Shown here: positions 14,443-24,502 of the stretch, piece by piece
Layout: every line of letters starts with the position of its first letter
Numbering within the stretch: position 1 is the stretch's first letter
Source: a virus
Taxonomy: Duplodnaviria; Caudoviricetes
DNA length: 50,063 nt
IMG/VR virus record: IMGVR_UViG_3300037245_001177
Span: 1-50,063 of that record
Reading direction: 5' to 3' (one strand)
Program-made: the position numbers and the translations under genes
Notes under the pieces: generated by a model
What the model saw: the letters and a program-made list of their open reading frames with translations, nothing else
Told to the model about the DNA's origin: nothing
Databases searched by the model: none

Positions 14443-15369
14443 TTAAAATCCTGGTTGCTGCATCATATCAACCTGGCCACTTGCATCAACATCTTTTTTC
14501 AAAGGAGTAGTAGTTGTAGGTTTCTTTTTTATTGGAGCCTCAACTTTTTTTGCTTCAATTTCAATTTCTTTTACATCTTCTGCTTCAATTTCAATTACAG
14601 TAGTATTTGCATTTTCTTCAATTTCACTTTTTACATCTTCTGCAACAACATCAATAGTAGTTTCGTTATCATCACCACCAATTCCTAAAACTCTATCATC
14701 GGAACCTCTAATCAATAATTTACAAGCTCTATTAATAACAGTTTTAATACTCATTTGACCAGGAAAGTTTTTATGGGCTGGAGAATTACCTTTCATAGCT
14801 CCTTGGTTCCACGCTTTTCTGATTTGATTCATATTCATTATCTCAGTATCAAAAGTGCCATCCATCAATTCTTTTACAGCATACGCTCCAATAACTTCAC
14901 CACTTAAACTTTCTAAAGTTTGTTTGTGTTTTGTAACTTTTTTTCTTCCAGTTGCAGTATCAACTTCAAATTCAAATTCATCACCTTTTCTTACAGATAC
15001 ACCACTAATATTTTTAAGGCCACCATATCTTCTTGCCAAGGCAATATTACCAGTATATTCAATAGAACATTCAAGTTTTTTTCCGTACATTATCAAATCA
15101 CATTGTTTTTTTAGTGGAGACAATCCCCAAACAACCATTTTCAATAATGCGTTTGCAATAGATTCCTGAGTGCAATGTGTTAAGGCATTTTGGCCTTGTT
15201 TATTGCTAGTTTCTGCTAAGATTAAGTAAGCAGATTTAAGTGCATTTTCTGGAGAATAATCTTTAGGTATTTTTAATTCTCCACTATTCTTGAAAGATTC
15301 AACTTTCGCTAATACGTGAACAGTAATGTCTTTTTTTACTACTGCTACTTTTTTAGATACATCTGTCAT
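14443..15369 (-). CDS. recT: RecT-family single-strand annealing protein
   Basis: SIANALLKMVVWGLSP, Y.GNIALARR, GAYA, H..F..QM..KTVINRACK. Confidence 0.88.
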   Translation of the reverse strand: MTDVSKKVAVVKKDITVHVLAKVESFKNSGELKIPKDYSPENALKSAYLILAETSNKQGQNALTHCTQESIANALLKMVVWGLSPLKKQCDLIMYGKKLECSIEYTGNIALARRYGGLKNISGVSVRKGDEFEFEVDTATGRKKVTKHKQTLESLSGEVIGAYAVKELMDGTFDTEIMNMNQIRKAWNQGAMKGNSPAHKNFPGQMSIKTVINRACKLLIRGSDDRVLGIGGDDNETTIDVVAEDVKSEIEENANTTVIEIEAEDVKEIEIEAKKVEAPIKKKPTTTTPLKKDVDASGQVDMMQQPGF

Positions 15370-18051: not shown

Positions 18052-18118
18052 TTTTGGTTTGGCACTAGTATTAATTGATTATCAGATAGTTAAGTGTTTT
18101 AGTGTTTTGTTTATCAGT

Positions 18119-18229
18119 AGTTGGTAGTGATATTAGCATATTACGTATTGTCCTAAAAAGTCATTAATAACCTCAACTACATAATTTTTGCTAAATGCTA
18201 GGAAAACTTACCTAAAACCTCAACCAACT
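18119..18229. repeat. Non-coding array element A1 (111 bp)
   Basis: AGTTGGT...ACCAACT ends; 2 mismatches to 19735-19845. Confidence 0.95.
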
Positions 18230-18268
18230 CTCAATAAACGGTATTAAAAAATTATCCATCTACAGGTT

Positions 18269-19129
18269 TTAATTTGCCTTACAAAAACAATCAGTTTCGT
18301 AATCCATTTTCGTGTCAAATAAATTACCTTGTGTTTTTTCTAATTCGTGTTTATCTTGAACTGTTCTGAATGGCAGTTTTGCTTTTTCCACTATTTCTTC
18401 AAATGTTATATGGTTTCTTAAATCAAATCTTGGTAATTTTTCAGTACCATATTTATTTTCCATCTTGATCCACCATTCAACACTTTTAGGATTTTCTTTA
18501 ATTAATGTCATTCGTTTACGTAAACTCTTTTTAAAACATAAATCACAATTACCTTGATAATCATTTATCCCTAAATCAAAACTTTGTCTATCCCACCAAT
18601 TTCTTATAAAACTACTATCCACTTGTATATCGTAAATTAATGGATAAATGATGCCTTGATCTAAAGATGTATTACTTTCCCTATGTCTTTCATCAAATCT
18701 AATTCCCATTGCTTTAACAACTTCTTTATAACCTAACGATTTAACAAACTTATCTATTGGCACTTGTTTTAATTCTCTTGTACAGTTAGATGCGTAGCTT
18801 GTTGGTATTGGGTATGCTTGCATCATTGCTTCAAATGGTTCACCATTTCTCGATGCAGTTTCATAATCAACAACTTTAAAATCAGTACCAACACCTTTTT
18901 CTTTATTAATCTTTGCTTCAATCCAAACTACATTTAAATTCCACTCTTTATCACATTTATTAATAAAATCTAATGTTTCTGGCAATTCTTTTCCTGTATT
19001 TGCATATATATATAATTTATCATATTCATCATATTTACAGTAATCTTTTAAAAACAACCCCATAAAAGCTGATGTACGACCTCCACTAAATGTGCAAACT
19101 AATAATTTATCTTTTTTCATACTTTCCAC
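18269..19129 (-). CDS. PAPS-reductase / adenine nucleotide alpha-hydrolase family protein (likely start 19120)
   Basis: FSGGRTS PP-loop, ANTGKE, CTRELK, GIRFDE..R, YPL, GNCDLCFKK. Confidence 0.85.
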   Translation of the reverse strand: MESMKKDKLLVCTFSGGRTSAFMGLFLKDYCKYDEYDKLYIYANTGKELPETLDFINKCDKEWNLNVVWIEAKINKEKGVGTDFKVVDYETASRNGEPFEAMMQAYPIPTSYASNCTRELKQVPIDKFVKSLGYKEVVKAMGIRFDERHRESNTSLDQGIIYPLIYDIQVDSSFIRNWWDRQSFDLGINDYQGNCDLCFKKSLRKRMTLIKENPKSVEWWIKMENKYGTEKLPRFDLRNHITFEEIVEKAKLPFRTVQDKHELEKTQGNLFDTKMDYETDCFCKAN

Positions 19130-19290
19130 ATATCAGGGTAATTATTGTTATTTGAAAATTCTATTTCACCGTTACAAATAGGACATTCAAAATCAAGACT
19201 AATTAAATCTCGCCAACAATCATTTATTTTTATAACAGGTTCTGCAACACCATCTGTTGCTATTATATTGTTACATTTACATTTTTTCAT
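19117..19290 (-). CDS. Small Cys-rich protein (57 aa), possible zinc ribbon
   Basis: Read by hand (MKKCKCNN...FECPICNGEI...); ATGA overlap with the next gene. Confidence 0.6.
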   Translation of the reverse strand: MKKCKCNNIIATDGVAEPVIKINDCWRDLISLDFECPICNGEIEFSNNNNYPDMWKV

Positions 19291-19376
19291 AATATTGTTA
19301 TTTTAATTATTAATATTTGGCTAAAGCCATTTGCATTTCAAATTTTTTAAAATCGTTTATCGTGTTAAGTTCTAAA

Positions 19377-19709
19377 CTATAAAACAATTTTTGTTAATTC
19401 ATTCAATGGTATGCTTATGTAAACATTTTTCGTGAAATTGTTTTGTATGTTTGCAACTTTTTTTTCATAATCTATGAGAAGTATTCTGCATTTTATACTA
19501 TCAAAAATAACTTTATCGTATTTTTTAAAACTATTGTTTAACAGTAGAGAACTCTGGAATAAAACCAATAAATTTTTAACTTCAGTTATTTCTTCCTTCA
19601 CTCGTTTTGCACTCGATAAATTATTACCATCATCATCATCTTCAAAATATCCTAATTCATAATCAAGTGTTTTAAGTCTTTGCTCTAAGTATTCTTTTAT
19701 TTCTTTCAT
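19377..19709 (-). CDS. Hypothetical protein, in-frame fusion across an array core
   Basis: Q52-SSL is encoded by CAG AGT TCT CTA across the core at 19550-19553. Confidence 0.7.
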   Translation of the reverse strand: MKEIKEYLEQRLKTLDYELGYFEDDDDGNNLSSAKRVKEEITEVKNLLVLFQSSLLLNNSFKKYDKVIFDSIKCRILLIDYEKKVANIQNNFTKNVYISIPLNELTKIVL

Positions 19710-19734
19710 AATATTTAATTGTTTTATTCGTGCT

Positions 19735-19845
19735 AGTTGGTAGTGATATTAGCATATTACGTATTGTCCTAAAAAGTTATTAATAACCTCAACTACATAA
19801 TTTTTGTTAAATGCTAGGAAAACTTACCTAAAACCTCAACCAACT
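19735..19845. repeat. Non-coding array element A3 (111 bp)
   Basis: Near-identical to 18119-18229. Confidence 0.95.
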
Positions 19846-19884
19846 CTGCGTATAAGTGATATAAATTAGCCTTTACGCTTTGTT

Positions 19885-20781
19885 TTAGCACTGCAACCCT
19901 TTAAAAATATGCTTAATAACCTCAACAGTCCAACCATTACCAAGCATTTTAAACCTATGAGAGTTCGCTACTCCACTTGTATAATTGTCTGGTACGGTTT
20001 GTAACCTCTCGCACTCAATAGGTGTGTATTTATGTATTTCCTTTAAGTCATTCACGCAATAGGTAGGTTTTTGTCCTTTAGCCATATTTGCAGTCAAACA
20101 ACTTGCTTTTCCTTTTGCATTAAAAAACGCATCTAATCTTGTTTTATCTCCCCATTTATTAAGCATCCAACCAGCATAGTTTTTATTAAACTCAGCATCT
20201 TCTTCTAATATATCATAAACACATTGCTTATTTTCAACCTCTATTTTATCAATAGGTATATTTGTCCAATACAATCTAGGTCTGTTATGTGCAGATAAAA
20301 CTTTAGAGTTTATTAATATTGGCTCAACGCCGATCGCTTTACTTATAACCTCTTGCCACTTTTTACTCATTTTTACATTCTCTAATAAAAAATATTTTGG
20401 GTTGGTTTCTTTTAGTACTCGTATAAATTCCCAAAACAAATAACTTTCACCTTTAAATTCAAATCCGTTATTTTTTAAGTCAAGGTAATGCTTTAAGGTA
20501 AGTATTTCAACATCGTTTTCACTTTTCATACCTATCATAGTTCCTGCAAAACTAAAATTTTGGCAACTACTACCTCCAATCAATAATCCTATTTTGTGAT
20601 TACCACTGTATTTTATTTTCGTAATATCACCTATTTGCCTTGTGTTTGGGTAGTTTTTCATTGTTACCCTCATTGCATTTTCATCAATCTCGCTTGCGAA
20701 ATAGTTATCTACTTTAATTCCTAATTGGTCGAGTGCTATTTGTCCGCAGCTCATACCATCAAATAAACTTAGTACATTCAT
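19885..20781 (-). CDS. DNA (cytosine-5) methyltransferase
   Basis: Motif I LSLFDGMSCG, IV GGSSCQNFS, VI LLENV, VIII RPRLYW, IX-X ECERLQT...LGNGW. Confidence 0.92.
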   Translation of the reverse strand: MNVLSLFDGMSCGQIALDQLGIKVDNYFASEIDENAMRVTMKNYPNTRQIGDITKIKYSGNHKIGLLIGGSSCQNFSFAGTMIGMKSENDVEILTLKHYLDLKNNGFEFKGESYLFWEFIRVLKETNPKYFLLENVKMSKKWQEVISKAIGVEPILINSKVLSAHNRPRLYWTNIPIDKIEVENKQCVYDILEEDAEFNKNYAGWMLNKWGDKTRLDAFFNAKGKASCLTANMAKGQKPTYCVNDLKEIHKYTPIECERLQTVPDNYTSGVANSHRFKMLGNGWTVEVIKHIFKGLQC

Positions 20782-20861
20782 TTCCTTATATTTTAAATTT
20801 TCAATTTAATTTCCTTTCTTAAAAAATTTATACCTCTTATGCTCTATAAAGTTCTAAAAAA

Positions 20862-21152
20862 TTACCGTTTAAGTAACCAGTCGTGATATTCCTCGAACCC
20901 TAATCTATAACTTAAAAGTAAATATGTACTTGAACCAATACTAGAAGTTTGTTTTATATCTTCTATTCTACTTTCTAATTCTAAGTTCATTTCTTTTTTT
21001 GTCGGCAACTTTAGAGAACTCTGCGCATAATTGATTTTAGCTTCAAGCCATTCTACATAATCTTCAGTATAAGCTATTTCTTTACCCTCAGACCAAATAA
21101 ATACATCTAATCCTGTTTCTCCTCTAAATTCTTTTTTTAATTTTAAGTCCAT
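20862..21152 (-). CDS. Hypothetical protein, in-frame fusion across an array core
   Basis: Q44-SSL is encoded by CAG AGT TCT CTA across the core at 21017-21020. Confidence 0.7.
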   Translation of the reverse strand: MDLKLKKEFRGETGLDVFIWSEGKEIAYTEDYVEWLEAKINYAQSSLKLPTKKEMNLELESRIEDIKQTSSIGSSTYLLLSYRLGFEEYHDWLLKR

Positions 21153-21202
21153 AATTTATTTAATTTATTGTTAATCTATTCTAAAAACAATCATTCACTG
21201 TA

Positions 21203-21315
21203 AGTTGGTAGTGAGTTGGGCAGGCTTTCTATATAAACAGTAACTGTTGTTTAATTCTTTAGTTTACCCTCATTTATTTATCAAGTAATATATCTCCCAA
21301 AGCCCACAACCAACT
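21203..21315. repeat. Non-coding array element A5 (113 bp)
   Basis: AGTTGGTAGTG...CACAACCAACT inverted ends; internal CCTCA. Confidence 0.8.
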
Positions 21316-21335
21316 CTCAATAAAAGTATAACTTA

Positions 21336-21518
21336 CTATCGTTTTTTATAATAATACTCTTTTGCTTCATCTTCTTTATCAAAGTGTAAAACTGTTTCCC
21401 TTCTATAACACATATTTAATTCACCATCAAATACGCCTATATTTTCAATTGTTATTTTTTTTCCTTCTAATTTTAAAGTGGGTTTTTCATTACTCCCACC
21501 CATACAAATTTCTGACAT
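21336..21518 (-). CDS. Hypothetical cassette protein (60 aa)
   Basis: Fits exactly inside segment 21312-21569. Confidence 0.65.
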   Translation of the reverse strand: MSEICMGGSNEKPTLKLEGKKITIENIGVFDGELNMCYRRETVLHFDKEDEAKEYYYKKR

Positions 21519-21565
21519 TTTATTAAGTTTTATAATTATTAATTCGTTATTCTTTTATTGTGTTT

Positions 21566-21675
21566 AGTTGTAATTAATGCTTGTTGTCTTTAACCTCAAC
21601 AAAAACGTGTGATAACCTCAGCTATAATAATGTCAATTAAAGTCTTTTAAGACCCTCAATCACGTAATAACAACT
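21566..21675. repeat. Non-coding array element A6 (110 bp)
   Basis: AGTTGTAATTA...TAATAACAACT; three CCTCA motifs. Confidence 0.8.
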
Positions 21676-21695
21676 CTGTATAACTCACAATACTA

Positions 21696-21845
21696 CTAAT
21701 CGCTTATTAATACACCTGTTATAAGCCCTCCAACCATAAAAAATAAATGAGCTGGGTTTGCTTCAATGTTTAAATATCTGTGTGCTATGAAAGTTGCTAT
21801 ACAAAATCCAATCGTTCCTGCTATTATTTTTATTATTTTTTTCAT
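21696..21845 (-). CDS. Small two-TM membrane protein (49 aa)
   Basis: Read by hand: MKKIIKIIAGTIGFCIATFIAHRYLNIEANPAHLFFMVGGLITGVLISD; fits segment 21672-21897. Confidence 0.65.
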   Translation of the reverse strand: MKKIIKIIAGTIGFCIATFIAHRYLNIEANPAHLFFMVGGLITGVLISD

Positions 21846-21893
21846 ATTTATTTAATTTAGTGTTTATTTAACGTTTCGTGTGTTATACTTGTA

Positions 21894-22007
21894 AGTTGGT
21901 AGTGATATTAGCGTATTAGTTTTAATGTCCTAAGTAATCAGCAATAACCTCAACTGTTGTAATGCTTGTTGTAAGCCTTTTTAGACTACCTAAGACCTCT
22001 ACCAACT
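21894..22007. repeat. Non-coding array element A7 (114 bp), diverged relative of A1/A3
   Basis: Shares AGTTGGTAGTGATATTAGC, TGTCCTAA, AATAACCTCAACT and TACCTAA.ACCTC.ACCAACT with A1. Confidence 0.9.
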
Positions 22008-22038
22008 CCCAATATAATTGATAATTTAAAAACTCCAT

Positions 22039-22362
22039 CTACAACGGTTCAAGGTATATTATTGGTTTACCAATAGATTCAGCATAATTTAATTCACTTC
22101 TTGTAGATTCACCAATATATCCGCCTACATTCAAAATAACAACTTCGTCCGATATATCTATTTTCCTTTTATGTAATTCGTCAAGTATATCTTTAACACC
22201 TTCCTTTTCTGCACCGTGATGATTTTCTCCTTCAAAATAACCATTAGGTAATATATTTATTCCAAGTGTAATAATTCCTTGTTTTTCTAATAACCAACGT
22301 TCAATCATAAAAGTTTGAGCGAATCTTGTTGAGCCACAAAAGCATACTGTTTTAGTTTTCAT
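22039..22362 (-). CDS. Nucleoside deoxyribosyltransferase-like (Rossmannoid) protein
   Basis: CGSTRF, LHKRKIDISD.V.ILNVGGYIGESTRSE..YA...GKPI. Confidence 0.65.
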   Translation of the reverse strand: MKTKTVCFCGSTRFAQTFMIERWLLEKQGIITLGINILPNGYFEGENHHGAEKEGVKDILDELHKRKIDISDEVVILNVGGYIGESTRSELNYAESIGKPIIYLEPL

Positions 22363-22452
22363 CTTTTTATATTTAATTATTAATATTTAATTTTTATCAA
22401 AATTATTTGCTACCACTTTCTTAAATCACCAATCATATAGGTGTTAAGTTAA

Positions 22453-22596
22453 TCAAACATTTAAAAGTTTCTTAAACGGTTTTTCTAATTCTCGAAATAA
22501 GTGTCTTAATGCAATGTTAAGTTCTATAAACGCACCCTGGGTAGTTCCTAATCTTACTAATTGTCTTTGCTCTAAATTGAATAATGGTTTTTTCAT
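22453..22596 (-). CDS. Small hypothetical protein (47 aa) inside array element A8
   Basis: Read by hand (MKKPLFNLEQRQLVRLGTTQGAFIELNIALRHLF...); fits 22447-22618. Confidence 0.6.
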   Translation of the reverse strand: MKKPLFNLEQRQLVRLGTTQGAFIELNIALRHLFRELEKPFKKLLNV

Positions 22597-22635
22597 AATA
22601 TTTAAACGTTAGTTAACTCTGTAAATATTTTATAC

Positions 22636-22890
22636 TTATTTTTTTAATTCTATACTAAACTTTAAAGTGGTTAGGTCATAACCTCTACGCTCAAGTTCAT
22701 CTTTTAAACTTTCAGATCTAAAACAAAACCTCTCTCTTTTTAAAGCCTTTTCTAAATCCCAAAGTAATTGTTCATTAATTATGTTGTGTAAAATCAAAGC
22801 TCCATCACACCTTCTTGGGTATTTGACCACAAAGTCTTTTTGTCTTTTATCGTATATAAGCGATAGTTTGTTTTCGTTATGCTTTGCCAT
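22636..22890 (-). CDS. Hypothetical cassette protein (84 aa)
   Basis: ELERRGYDLTTLKFSI C-terminus; fits segment 22615-22950. Confidence 0.7.
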   Translation of the reverse strand: MAKHNENKLSLIYDKRQKDFVVKYPRRCDGALILHNIINEQLLWDLEKALKRERFCFRSESLKDELERRGYDLTTLKFSIELKK

Positions 22891-22946
22891 TTGTTTTATA
22901 TTTTATAAGTTAATTTTGTGTTTACTCGTACAAATTATTTACTGTA

Positions 22947-23055
22947 AGTTAATCTGTCATTTTTGTTGGTGTAATAACCTCAACGTTTAACGTGTTTAAA
23001 AGGTTATTGTTAATTCTAAAATTAGTGTTTATCCCTCAAAACCGTTCAGTTAACT
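22947..23055. repeat. Non-coding array element A9 (109 bp)
   Basis: AGTTAATCTG...CAGTTAACT; two CCTCA motifs; partial copy at 23662-23705. Confidence 0.85.
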
Positions 23056-23101
23056 CTGTATAACCGGTACAATAAAAAAGCCATCTACACGTGTTATTTC
23101 T

Positions 23102-23740: not shown

Positions 23741-23995
23741 TTAAATTTTTTCAAATGTTGTCCCGTTTTCAGTCATGATATAACAAGGTGCATCAATTAA
23801 AATTGAATCATCGGTTAATATCACAACAACAACTTTATCAACATATTCATCCCTAATATCAAGGTAATATTTTTGTAATGTTTTTTTCCATTGATCATGT
23901 GTTTGATCGTTCCTTTTAATAAGCTGATAATCTCTTCCCAAAATTGTGTTCATTGGGTTCCCTTCTTTGTTAAATCTTCTTAAAATAAAATTCAT
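23741..23995 (-). CDS. Hypothetical protein
   Basis: C-terminal YIMTENGTTFEKI pattern recalled from phage small proteins. Confidence 0.65.
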   Translation of the reverse strand: MNFILRRFNKEGNPMNTILGRDYQLIKRNDQTHDQWKKTLQKYYLDIRDEYVDKVVVVILTDDSILIDAPCYIMTENGTTFEKI

Positions 23996-24274
23996 AATGT
24001 GTATATATTTATATATTTGCCTACTCTATTAGCTTTTCGGCTTCCGCTTAATATCTTGGTATCACAATTTGTGATGTCATTTTAATTTTTCAAATTAATC
24101 ACCTTCGCTCTTTTTTTATTGCATCGGTTATACTGTTAGTTGGTATTGAGTTTTGTTAGCTTTAATTCATCAATGGTCATAACTTTTGGTTATTACGTTC
24201 ACTAAATAGCAATAAGTTGCTAATTATATGAGTATTTTACTATTAAAAGCAATATGTTGCTCCTACTCCAAAAA

Positions 24275-24502
24275 CTAATACTCTAAATAAATTTTTACAC
24301 CTAATTTCTTACAAATAGCCAATAAAATATCTATTGAATATCCTTGGACCTTTAATTCACCACCTACCTGGAGTATCTTATAAATAGATCCTCGGCTTAA
24401 TTCAGTTTTTTTAGAGAGCTCCACTTTACTTATTTTTTCCTTCAATATTTTTTTAGATATGGAATTCGCAATTTGTTTCCGGTTTTTAATTTCTATTAAC
24501 AT
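24275..24502 (-). CDS. XRE/Cro-type helix-turn-helix regulator
   Basis: ISKVELSKKTELSRGSIYKIL...SIDILLAICKKLGVKI. Confidence 0.8.
   Translation of the reverse strand: MLIEIKNRKQIANSISKKILKEKISKVELSKKTELSRGSIYKILQVGGELKVQGYSIDILLAICKKLGVKIYLEY

Follow-up and report, generated by a model that had tools for sequence, protein, structure and literature searches.

Apparent exchange of tail modules at paired inverted-repeat boundaries in small early genes of a marine-sediment phage

How mosaic junctions in phage genomes form without damage to the genes they cross is an old open question. It arises in concrete form in the IMG/VR virus record IMGVR_UViG_3300037245_001177 (Duplodnaviria; Caudoviricetes), which we analysed over its whole length of 50,063 nucleotides (nt) and refer to as the window. 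Two small early genes on its minus strand, here called open reading frame (ORF) 1 (19377..19709, 110 amino acids (aa)) and ORF2 (20862..21152, 96 aa), had been singled out in a preliminary description as in-frame chimeras, in which one short core joins otherwise different N-terminal and C-terminal modules. Are these modules, which we call heads and tails, interchangeable, and what marks the place where they meet? The window offers a recognisable boundary inside the small genes themselves, at the joint between the two modules and paired with a partner at the stop codon. As far as sequence comparison can tell, the interchangeability of heads and tails is supported, and the whole has the look of cassettes exchanged in the course of evolution at boundaries that are conserved. 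What is new here is the nature of the junction, a nucleic-acid arm that covaries with, and pairs with, the stop region; this gives the finding more specificity and more interest than mosaicism by itself would have.

Heads, tails and their changing partners

An exact 12-mer, TAGAGAACTCTG, stands on the plus strand at 19545-19556 and 21012-21023 and at no other site in the window, and its identity at the two sites confirms that both genes read a common core in frame. On the minus strand it is CAG AGT TCT CTA, which gives Q52-S-S-L in ORF1 and Q44-S-S-L in ORF2. It divides ORF1 into a head of residues 1-51 (19557..19709, minus strand) and a tail of residues 52-110 (19380..19556, minus strand), and ORF2 into a head of residues 1-43 (21024..21152, minus strand) and a tail of residues 44-96 (20865..21023, minus strand), so that both tails begin with QSSL. 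Each gene also stops close to a far AGTTCT core, as had been described: this inverted copy of the 12-mer core lies 3 nt past the stop codon of ORF1 (19368-19373) and 6 nt past that of ORF2 (20850-20855), and both copies are embedded in an identical 10-mer, AAGTTCTAAA. Beyond the junction the two proteins have no significant similarity to each other, with a best BLASTP E value of 0.31 and no cross matches in tblastn. The alignment behind that value sets ORF1 residues 15-26 (LDYELGYFEDDD, in the head) against ORF2 residues 80-91 (LSYRLGFEEYHD, in the tail), with 6 of 12 residues identical, and is not significant.

Relatives of ORF1 were recovered by a word-indexed protein search (P0002, 85 aa, and P0003, 110 aa) and at metagenome loci (L001-L003, where L001 and L002 represent one variant, of the P0002 type, and L003 another). 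They match ORF1 over residues 1-51 only, at 71-78% identity, and P0002 and P0003 then continue into unrelated sequence. The ORF1 head is therefore seen with four unrelated tails (in the window, in L001/L002 together with P0002, in L003 and in P0003), whose lengths, from the shortest up, are 34, 38, 59 and 59 aa. Similarity of the head at the DNA level begins about 10 nt before the ATG and ends at codon 51, exactly where protein similarity ends as well. A second record of the ORF1 tail, P0001 (63 aa, on a 1609-nt contig), starts 4 residues before QSSL at the contig edge; an assembly break right at the module junction could reflect strain heterogeneity there, or nothing.

For ORF2, the word-indexed search returned only ORF2 itself, and an exhaustive phmmer search returned 30 proteins at E<=1e-3 (29 relatives). 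Some of these match at full length (e.g., P0005, residues 9-96), many only from residue 1 to 41-43, and others only from residues 28-47 to 96. Together with five ORFs from viral contigs they form a family of 35, in which, at the BLAST threshold, the head is present in 28 members, the tail in 10 and both in 3. The 26 tails of at least 12 aa that accompany ORF2-type heads fall into 22 BLAST classes and the 10 heads that accompany its tail into 8 classes, counts that are upper bounds because BLAST is insensitive on such short pieces. Locus scans used sub-alignments A6, A7, A10 and A11, alignment A5 being too diverse. Viral contigs yielded no relative of ORF1 or of the ORF2-tail family, and genome contigs none of the tail family. 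Where DNA could be compared, the break is again sharp: locus L004 is 80% identical to ORF2 in amino acids over residues 1-41, and DNA similarity stops abruptly at codon 41. The tails that follow resemble, judged by eye, ordinary mini-domains, including CxxC...CxxC patterns, SH3-like GDxV motifs and helical hairpins.

When the halves were searched separately, three of the four (ORF1 head, ORF2 head and ORF2 tail) were thus found with different partners at the same junction, in line with the preliminary description. Halves that always travel together and lack inverted repeats in their DNA are not what was found: the relatives mix partners and carry an inverted repeat around the tail. By this comparison, the modules occur with many different partners.

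Structural prediction agrees with a bipartite protein in the case of ORF2. Its AlphaFold2 model, built on a 30-sequence alignment, has a predicted local distance difference test score (pLDDT) of 89.5 and a predicted template modelling score (pTM) of 0.51. The model shows two confident modules connected by coil at residues 46-51, the head with helices at 3-13 and 30-45 and strands at 18-20 and 26-28, and the tail with helices at 52-69, 71-74 and 76-95; pLDDT reaches its minimum at residues 41-50. Searched with Foldseek against BFVD and PDB, the model found nothing at E<=1e-3, the best match being a protein of Cellulophaga phage phi18:3 (E 0.025). Neither ORF1 nor ORF2 belongs to a Pfam or PHROG family, and ESM Atlas gave no match above 0.85; for the ORF1 tail, comparison with an ESM Atlas model gave weak matches to small beta-barrel folds, which are a lead only.

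Paired arms at the junction and the stop codon

At the nucleic-acid level the junction is one arm of a predicted helix, the other arm of which lies at the stop codon. In ORF1 the 5' arm (19535..19555, minus strand), which includes the 12-mer at 19545-19556, is predicted to pair with a 3' arm (19366..19385, minus strand) that includes the stop codon (19377-19379) and AGAACT (19368-19373), in a duplex of 16 base pairs (bp), 2 of them G.U, at -16.5 kcal/mol on the sense strand and -8.9 kcal/mol on the antisense strand. The helix of ORF2 is composite and stronger. Its 5' arm (21002..21036, minus strand) consists of an outer box, TTATGC, the 12-mer at 21012-21023 and an inner AAAGTTGCCG; its 3' arm (20831..20868, minus strand) contains the stop codon (20862-20864), AGAACT (20850-20855) and the outer box GCATAA; and the duplex has 28 bp with 4 G.U pairs, at -28.8 kcal/mol sense and -15.1 kcal/mol antisense.

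The same architecture recurs in the relatives and in four intergenic repeats of the window, which are described further below: a GTTnnn / nnnAAC core, a TTATAC-like box a few nucleotides outside it and, in many cases, an inner helix into which the stop codon falls. The arms vary between loci and yet remain complementary, as in AGTTCT/AGAACT, AGTTGGT/ACCAACT and GTTAGCC/GGCTAAC, and likewise in GTTACCCA/TGGGTAAC and TGTTGTAAG/CTTACAACA; that is, the variable arm positions change together. In nine of nine genes the stop codon lies inside or beside the 3' arm.

For the nine genes with DNA, a localisation test looked for the 20-nt stretch of coding sequence whose pairing with the stop codon and the 30 nt after it is strongest. 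In eight of them the junction pairs better with the stop region than any other block of the coding sequence (Fisher combined P = 2e-10); the ninth, L008, forms a local hairpin and is not a fair test of junction pairing. Energies of the gene duplexes, computed with 50-nt windows, range from -14 to -29 kcal/mol over 15-29 bp, against a median of -8.7 kcal/mol and a 1% tail of -19.4 kcal/mol for random same-strand pairs. When all 62 genes of the window were ranked by the pairing of an internal stretch with the stop region, ORF2 came first (-28.8 kcal/mol) and ORF1 sixth (-21.3 kcal/mol). Ranks 2 and 3 are held by the minus-strand ORFs 21696-21845 and 24275-24502 (-24.3 and -23.7 kcal/mol), which may be further cases of the same architecture; the former resembles a small membrane protein.

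Two further regularities tie the ORF1 and ORF2 units together. They are joined by four collinear exact matches, at offsets of 1482, 1467, 1468 and 1470, and the pattern TTAT-N(2-7)-AGAGTT, read on the minus strand, has seven copies within 18237-23063 and two in the rest of the window. Five of the seven form the 5' edge of intergenic elements and the other two lie inside ORF1 and ORF2. It is because of these collinear matches, the clustering of the TTAT boxes, the localised pairing with the stop region and the ranking among genes that we regard the junction as beyond chance.

The preliminary description had expected one junction read in one frame. The position of the junction was upheld in the relatives; the constant frame was not, since the arm is read in two frames. 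The G of its GTT falls on codon position 1 (read as V) in five genes and on position 2 (read as C or S) in five, so that the linker QSSL of the window becomes VVSS, RCC or GVVRS elsewhere. In one genome, G001, the same nine nucleotides, TGTTGTACG, are translated within RCCT in one of its genes and within GVVR in a second one. It follows that the nucleotide sequence is conserved and not the peptide, and QSSL is simply how the arm of this phage translates.

The arms also go with the tail. Loci L007 and L009 have nearly identical heads and differ in both arms and tails, from which we take the arms to be part of the tail cassette. In L008 the arm itself provides a TAG stop, leaving a head of 42 aa alone, followed by a hairpin of 7 bp with a 17-nt loop. 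To judge from the loci for which DNA could be aligned, the breakpoint between shared and unrelated sequence coincides with the arm.

Finally, the helices have a preferred strand. In all 13 (nine in genes and four in the intergenic repeats) the sense strand gives the more stable pairing, at a mean of -22.2 kcal/mol versus -16.9 kcal/mol for the antisense strand, and each contains 1-6 G.U pairs. This preference favours pairing in mRNA or in one particular DNA strand, though it falls short of proof.

Proposed exchange at two boundaries and competing explanations

If tails are exchanged as cassettes, unrelated cassettes should be recognisable by their edges, and the clearest instance comes from G001, where two genes with no relation to each other are separated by 17.5 kb. 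Their 5' boundaries agree in about 24 of 30 nt and their 3' boundaries are identical over 66 nt, whereas the tails enclosed by them are unrelated. This is the classic arrangement for cassette replacement via two crossovers in flanking homology. The window is a weaker example, because the boundaries common to ORF1 and ORF2 are much shorter (12 nt at the 5' side and 10 nt at the 3' side, in flanks that are about 60-65% similar by eye). Among other relatives, the 3' boundary TTRCYTACAAC follows the stop codon in L003, L004, L005 and L007, all with unrelated tails, and L003, L004 and L005 share the identical end 'S-L-stop + TTGCYTACAAC' despite that. A search for the 3' motif in the records of five relatives gave seven matches, against one for a reversed control. 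Three of the seven were the known genes; of the four new ones, three lie directly after a stop codon, and two have their best pairing partner at a VV-type linker in genes with new, unrelated heads, at -40.9 and -20.9 kcal/mol (the runner-up partner in the latter case reaches -16.8 kcal/mol). Boundaries are thus, on the sequences compared, repeated within one genome.

The account that we consider rather probable is that ORF1 and ORF2 are two-module proteins whose tails are replaced by homologous or short-homology recombination at two boundaries, possibly catalysed by RecT. The tail module would be a cassette whose 5' boundary lies inside the reading frame, where it would be translated as the linker, and whose 3' boundary would begin at or just after the stop codon. 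Both boundaries would be the composite inverted repeats described above, with TTATAC-like outer box, GTTnnn / nnnAAC core and, often, the inner helix that contains the stop. We propose recombination at these boundaries as the probable mechanism of exchange because unrelated cassettes of one genome have alike boundaries. Recombination at both would swap tails without breaking the frame: with the 5' crossover in the translated arm, the product would stay in frame when donor and recipient share a frame, as ORF1 and ORF2 do. A RecT-type annealing protein of the phage may catalyse exchange at such short homologies, and swaps on an evolutionary scale would yield the many head-tail combinations seen in metagenomes. 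The arms may in addition pair in mRNA, perhaps as a 3'-end or processing structure.

Several observations weigh against this account. A search for relatives of the ORF1 tail found none, leaving one of the four halves with no relative beyond itself, and no function could be assigned to any module from Pfam, PHROG, ESM Atlas or Foldseek. DNA is at hand for just 11 such genes from 8 contigs, the 29 relatives of ORF2 being known at the protein level only. The common boundaries in the window, at 12 and 10 nt, are short and by themselves not significant: allowing up to two mismatches, the 12-mer has 5 matches against 3.6 expected, and pairs of a 12-mer with a nearby 10-mer number 39 in the real window and about 17 per shuffled window. 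A 6-nt inverted repeat is trivial at 29.6% G+C, and helices of -12 to -16 kcal/mol are common in DNA so rich in A+T; a scan at -12.5 kcal/mol counted 136 helices in the early region and 85-128 in four shuffles, which is mostly noise, and a search for perfect inverted repeats was drowned in AT-rich chance matches. The sense-strand preference is partly a matter of composition, since random pairs already show it at a baseline of 59% (binomial P ~0.001). Two of the four new 3'-motif matches failed, that at L009 position 1673 having no convincing partner and that in L011 not lying at the end of an ORF. Lastly, the contigs of the single run that covers the region contain no recombinant or alternative joint at either QSSL site, though contigs drop rare variants.

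Much of the same evidence could be read as a matter of RNA. The helices might be functional mRNA structures only, serving 3'-end stabilisation, RNase III-type processing or the control of translation or termination, with the mosaics arising from ordinary illegitimate recombination followed by selection; arm and breakpoint would then coincide because pairing survives only where an arm pair is passed on along with the module that it encloses. The strand preference with its G.U pairs in 13 of 13 helices, the stop codon at the 3' arm in nine of nine genes, and the presence of the same arm type around non-coding structured repeats in 5' leaders all fit this. What it leaves unexplained are the 66 identical nt beyond the arm in unrelated cassettes of G001 and the one S-L-stop end with its TTGCYTACAAC on three unrelated tails. 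In Rfam, neither the repeats nor the arms match any family, the arms are not immediately followed by a terminator-like U run (the window has 6 terminator-like sites, none at arms), and a scan for sigma-70-like promoters, which does not cover other promoter types, gave 42 sites against 53.7 expected, none of them in the repeats. An exclusive role in mRNA therefore seems to us unlikely, though it deserves to be taken seriously.

Another way to account for inverted repeats around translated segments is insertion. Rickettsia palindromic elements, for example, are palindrome-ended segments of 100-200 nt that are read in frame and also occur between genes, and selfish mini-elements of that kind, or resembling miniature inverted-repeat transposable elements, could have entered the 3' ends of small genes and been read through, the tails being peptides encoded by the element. 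Such an origin would lead one to expect composite inverted repeats at the two termini, ends of the same kind on the four non-coding intergenic copies, and arms that go with the cargo and not with the head (L007 versus L009), all of which are seen, and the solo 7-bp hairpin with its 17-nt loop at the same site in L008 could be an empty or minimal form. However, copies of Rickettsia palindromic elements share their whole sequence, whereas the segments described here have nothing but their ends in common, the interiors of the coding ones being mini-domains unrelated to one another and to the intergenic copies, and just the four non-coding repeats having a common interior. These interiors look like ordinary mini-domains (CxxC pairs, SH3-like GDxV, helical hairpins), no target-site duplication was noticed beside the outer boxes on inspection by eye, short of a systematic search, and the complete genome contains no transposase, integrase or resolvase. 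We consider an origin of the tails as inserted elements quite unlikely.

A third possibility is a switch, in which the segments that supply the tails invert or are exchanged by site-specific recombination at the AGTTCT cores to give phase-variable tails. The G segment of phage Mu and the R64 shufflon work in this way, through a dedicated invertase (Gin or Rci) that acts on crossover sites 19-34 bp long, and both of their orientations encode tails; as in the window, a constant N-terminal part is joined in frame across an intragenic site to alternative C-terminal parts. The cores do alternate in inverted orientation along the region, and both sites carry one and the same 12-mer, read in a common frame. 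Yet the complete 50,063-nt record has no match to PF00239 (Resolvase/invertase) or PF00589 (tyrosine recombinase), searches that were positive in 12 and 14, respectively, of 14 control genomes; the perfect core is only 6 nt long; and inverted segments have no open tail frame, since the reading would end after 2 codons for ORF1 and 6 codons for ORF2, so that the segments do not represent the two orientations of a single switch. The Logan contigs of one run, from which rare variants drop out, are collinear over ORF1 (18528-19763) and ORF2 (20785-21922), with no differences and no joint at the cores. Such a switch is highly improbable. The combinatorial domain shuffling suggested in the preliminary description is supported across relatives, but there is no sign of its going on inside this genome, which has neither invertase nor integrase and whose contigs from one run are collinear.

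That the 12-mer is a coincidence of AT-rich DNA and the tails are fast-evolving protein ends is scarcely credible, for although neither the 12-mer nor its pairing with the 10-mer is significant alone, DNA identity falls abruptly from about 80-88% to none at a single codon, tails of one head differ in length (34, 38, 59 and 59 aa), the same tail stands behind 8 classes of heads, and pairing is localised to the junction (P = 2e-10). A diversity-generating retroelement, group I or II introns and translational bypass were dropped, since relatives differ by whole modules and not by single bases; nothing that would support any of them was seen, and no search aimed at a reverse transcriptase was made.

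Tail replacement by recombination at the two boundaries has its closest counterpart in work on T4-type phages. There, PeSLs are short, repeated, stem-bearing elements that flank small ORFans in plastic early regions and allow sequences with no other relation to recombine by homology (Arbiol et al. 2010, PMC2839356; Comeau et al. 2014, PMC4122927). They are described there as intergenic, each consisting of a sigma-70 promoter and a local GGGG...CCCC hairpin terminator, and as shuffling whole ORFs, with the authors stressing the avoidance of chimeras (PMC2839356). PeSL-mediated modular shuffling is the nearest published idea. The boundaries described here are similar in being short, repeated and stem-forming and in lying at small ORFan genes of an early region. 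They differ in that the 5' boundary is inside the ORF and translated, only the four non-coding repeats being intergenic; in that the stem is long-range, encloses the module and has arms that vary and covary; and in that no sigma-70 promoter was detected and no local terminator is part of the element. A more general proposal is exchange at short conserved boundary sequences between phage modules, which are usually not identifiable at mosaic joints (PMC3029335). The likeness lies in a module that combines with different neighbours and in a short conserved sequence at the junction, and the difference in boundaries that can be recognised here, are located inside genes and bracket the module as pairs of inverted repeats.

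Outside phages, the attC sites of integrons invite comparison. They have ...AAC first and GTT... last and form a compact hairpin behind a complete ORF. Shared with them are imperfect inverted repeats built on GTT... / ...AAC cores and folding as a single strand with a strand preference; here, however, GTT... comes before ...AAC, and between the arms of the helix lies a coding module that lacks its own start codon. The PF00589 search of the complete record found no IntI-type tyrosine recombinase.

A full-text search of the literature, not exhaustive and without supplementary files, found no description of inverted-repeat-bracketed in-frame tail cassettes in phages. It is conceivable, and we put this forward only tentatively, that the genes belong to a previously undescribed intragenic system in which tail mini-domains (zinc ribbons, small barrels, helical hairpins) lie between composite inverted-repeat boundaries, the 5' arm serving as a linker in either frame and the 3' arm carrying the stop, and pass between many heads of the small early proteins that a group of marine phages encodes. 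It would be an intragenic counterpart of integron and PeSL cassettes, with the helix possibly serving hairpin-targeted recombination or RNA processing.

Three questions become open to direct test. Are domains exchanged in frame under the guidance of short structured boundaries? Can nucleic-acid structure dictate a linker peptide, with the same nucleotides read in two frames? And what role does a head that accepts more than 20 tails play in early infection? For annotation, a practical rule would be to divide small ORFan proteins from these phages at the arm first and to search for homologues afterwards.

The early block and its intergenic repeats

CheckV rates the virus record as 100% complete. 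It encodes the large and small terminase, portal and tape measure proteins, and the closest match to its large terminase (TerL) is just 39% identical; cultured phages are all distant. The region is present in one public run, a marine sediment metagenome, and weak hints point toward Bacteroidota as hosts. A tRNA search of the window found none. Compared with the phages collection, the region has a sole megablast match, within the Dcm gene, and ORF1 and ORF2 have no tblastn match.

ORF1 and ORF2 belong to a replication and early block on the minus strand, at about 10.4-25.6 kb, with genes for DnaB, a weak RusA match, YopX, a metallo-beta-lactamase-fold protein, a PAPS-reductase-like protein, a Dcm methylase and the RecT-family single-strand annealing protein invoked above (14443..15369, minus strand; PF03837, E 4.9e-35).

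Four of the intergenic elements of this block are copies of a repeat of about 140 nt closed by AGTTGGT/ACCAACT arms, and each lies just upstream of a small gene. The copy at 18100..18245 (minus strand), non-coding and with TTAT boxes outside its arms, is 98% identical over 114 nt to the copy represented by 19734-19847, which belongs to the repeat directly upstream of ORF1 (19716..19862, minus strand). The repeat directly upstream of ORF2 (21190..21332, minus strand) is the most divergent and has its own extended stem, with a duplex of -31.2 kcal/mol, and a fourth (21880..22024, minus strand) lies upstream of ORF 21696-21845. From the arm inside each ORF to the arm of the repeat upstream of it the interval is 178 nt for ORF1 (19557-19734) and 179 nt for ORF2 (21024-21202), near-equal lengths despite unrelated heads of 51 and 43 codons.

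Some Logan contigs contain joints near these repeats that skip 1-5 kb, at 18118, 19850, 20814, 21316-21333, 21894 and 22940-22947. One of them, from 19850 to 21894, has a depth of 12.6, and all are 20-36 nt on their shorter side; they may represent relatives with another gene order, other organisms or repeat artefacts.

The relatives have intergenic motifs of their own directly past stop codons, ACAACGG, GTAACGG or TATAACGG followed by GTATA-like boxes, at L001 497-740, L003 1560-1620 and 2190-2300, and L004 1567-1600.

Further along the block, the Rfam cis-regulatory motif DUF805b RNA (RF02914) was matched over its full model at 24018-24050 (minus strand; 47.1 bits against a gathering score of 35.6, E 3.9e-11), in the intergenic space upstream of ORF 23741-23995. 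A 22-nt inverted repeat, 91% complementary, at 23058-23079 and 24112-24133, with 1032 nt between its arms, includes a GGTTATAC box and flanks three small genes. Lastly, GTAGATGG followed by a T run recurs at 18255-18264, 22034-22045 and about 23071-23090, at or just past the stop codons of three early genes and upstream of the TTATAC box of the next element.

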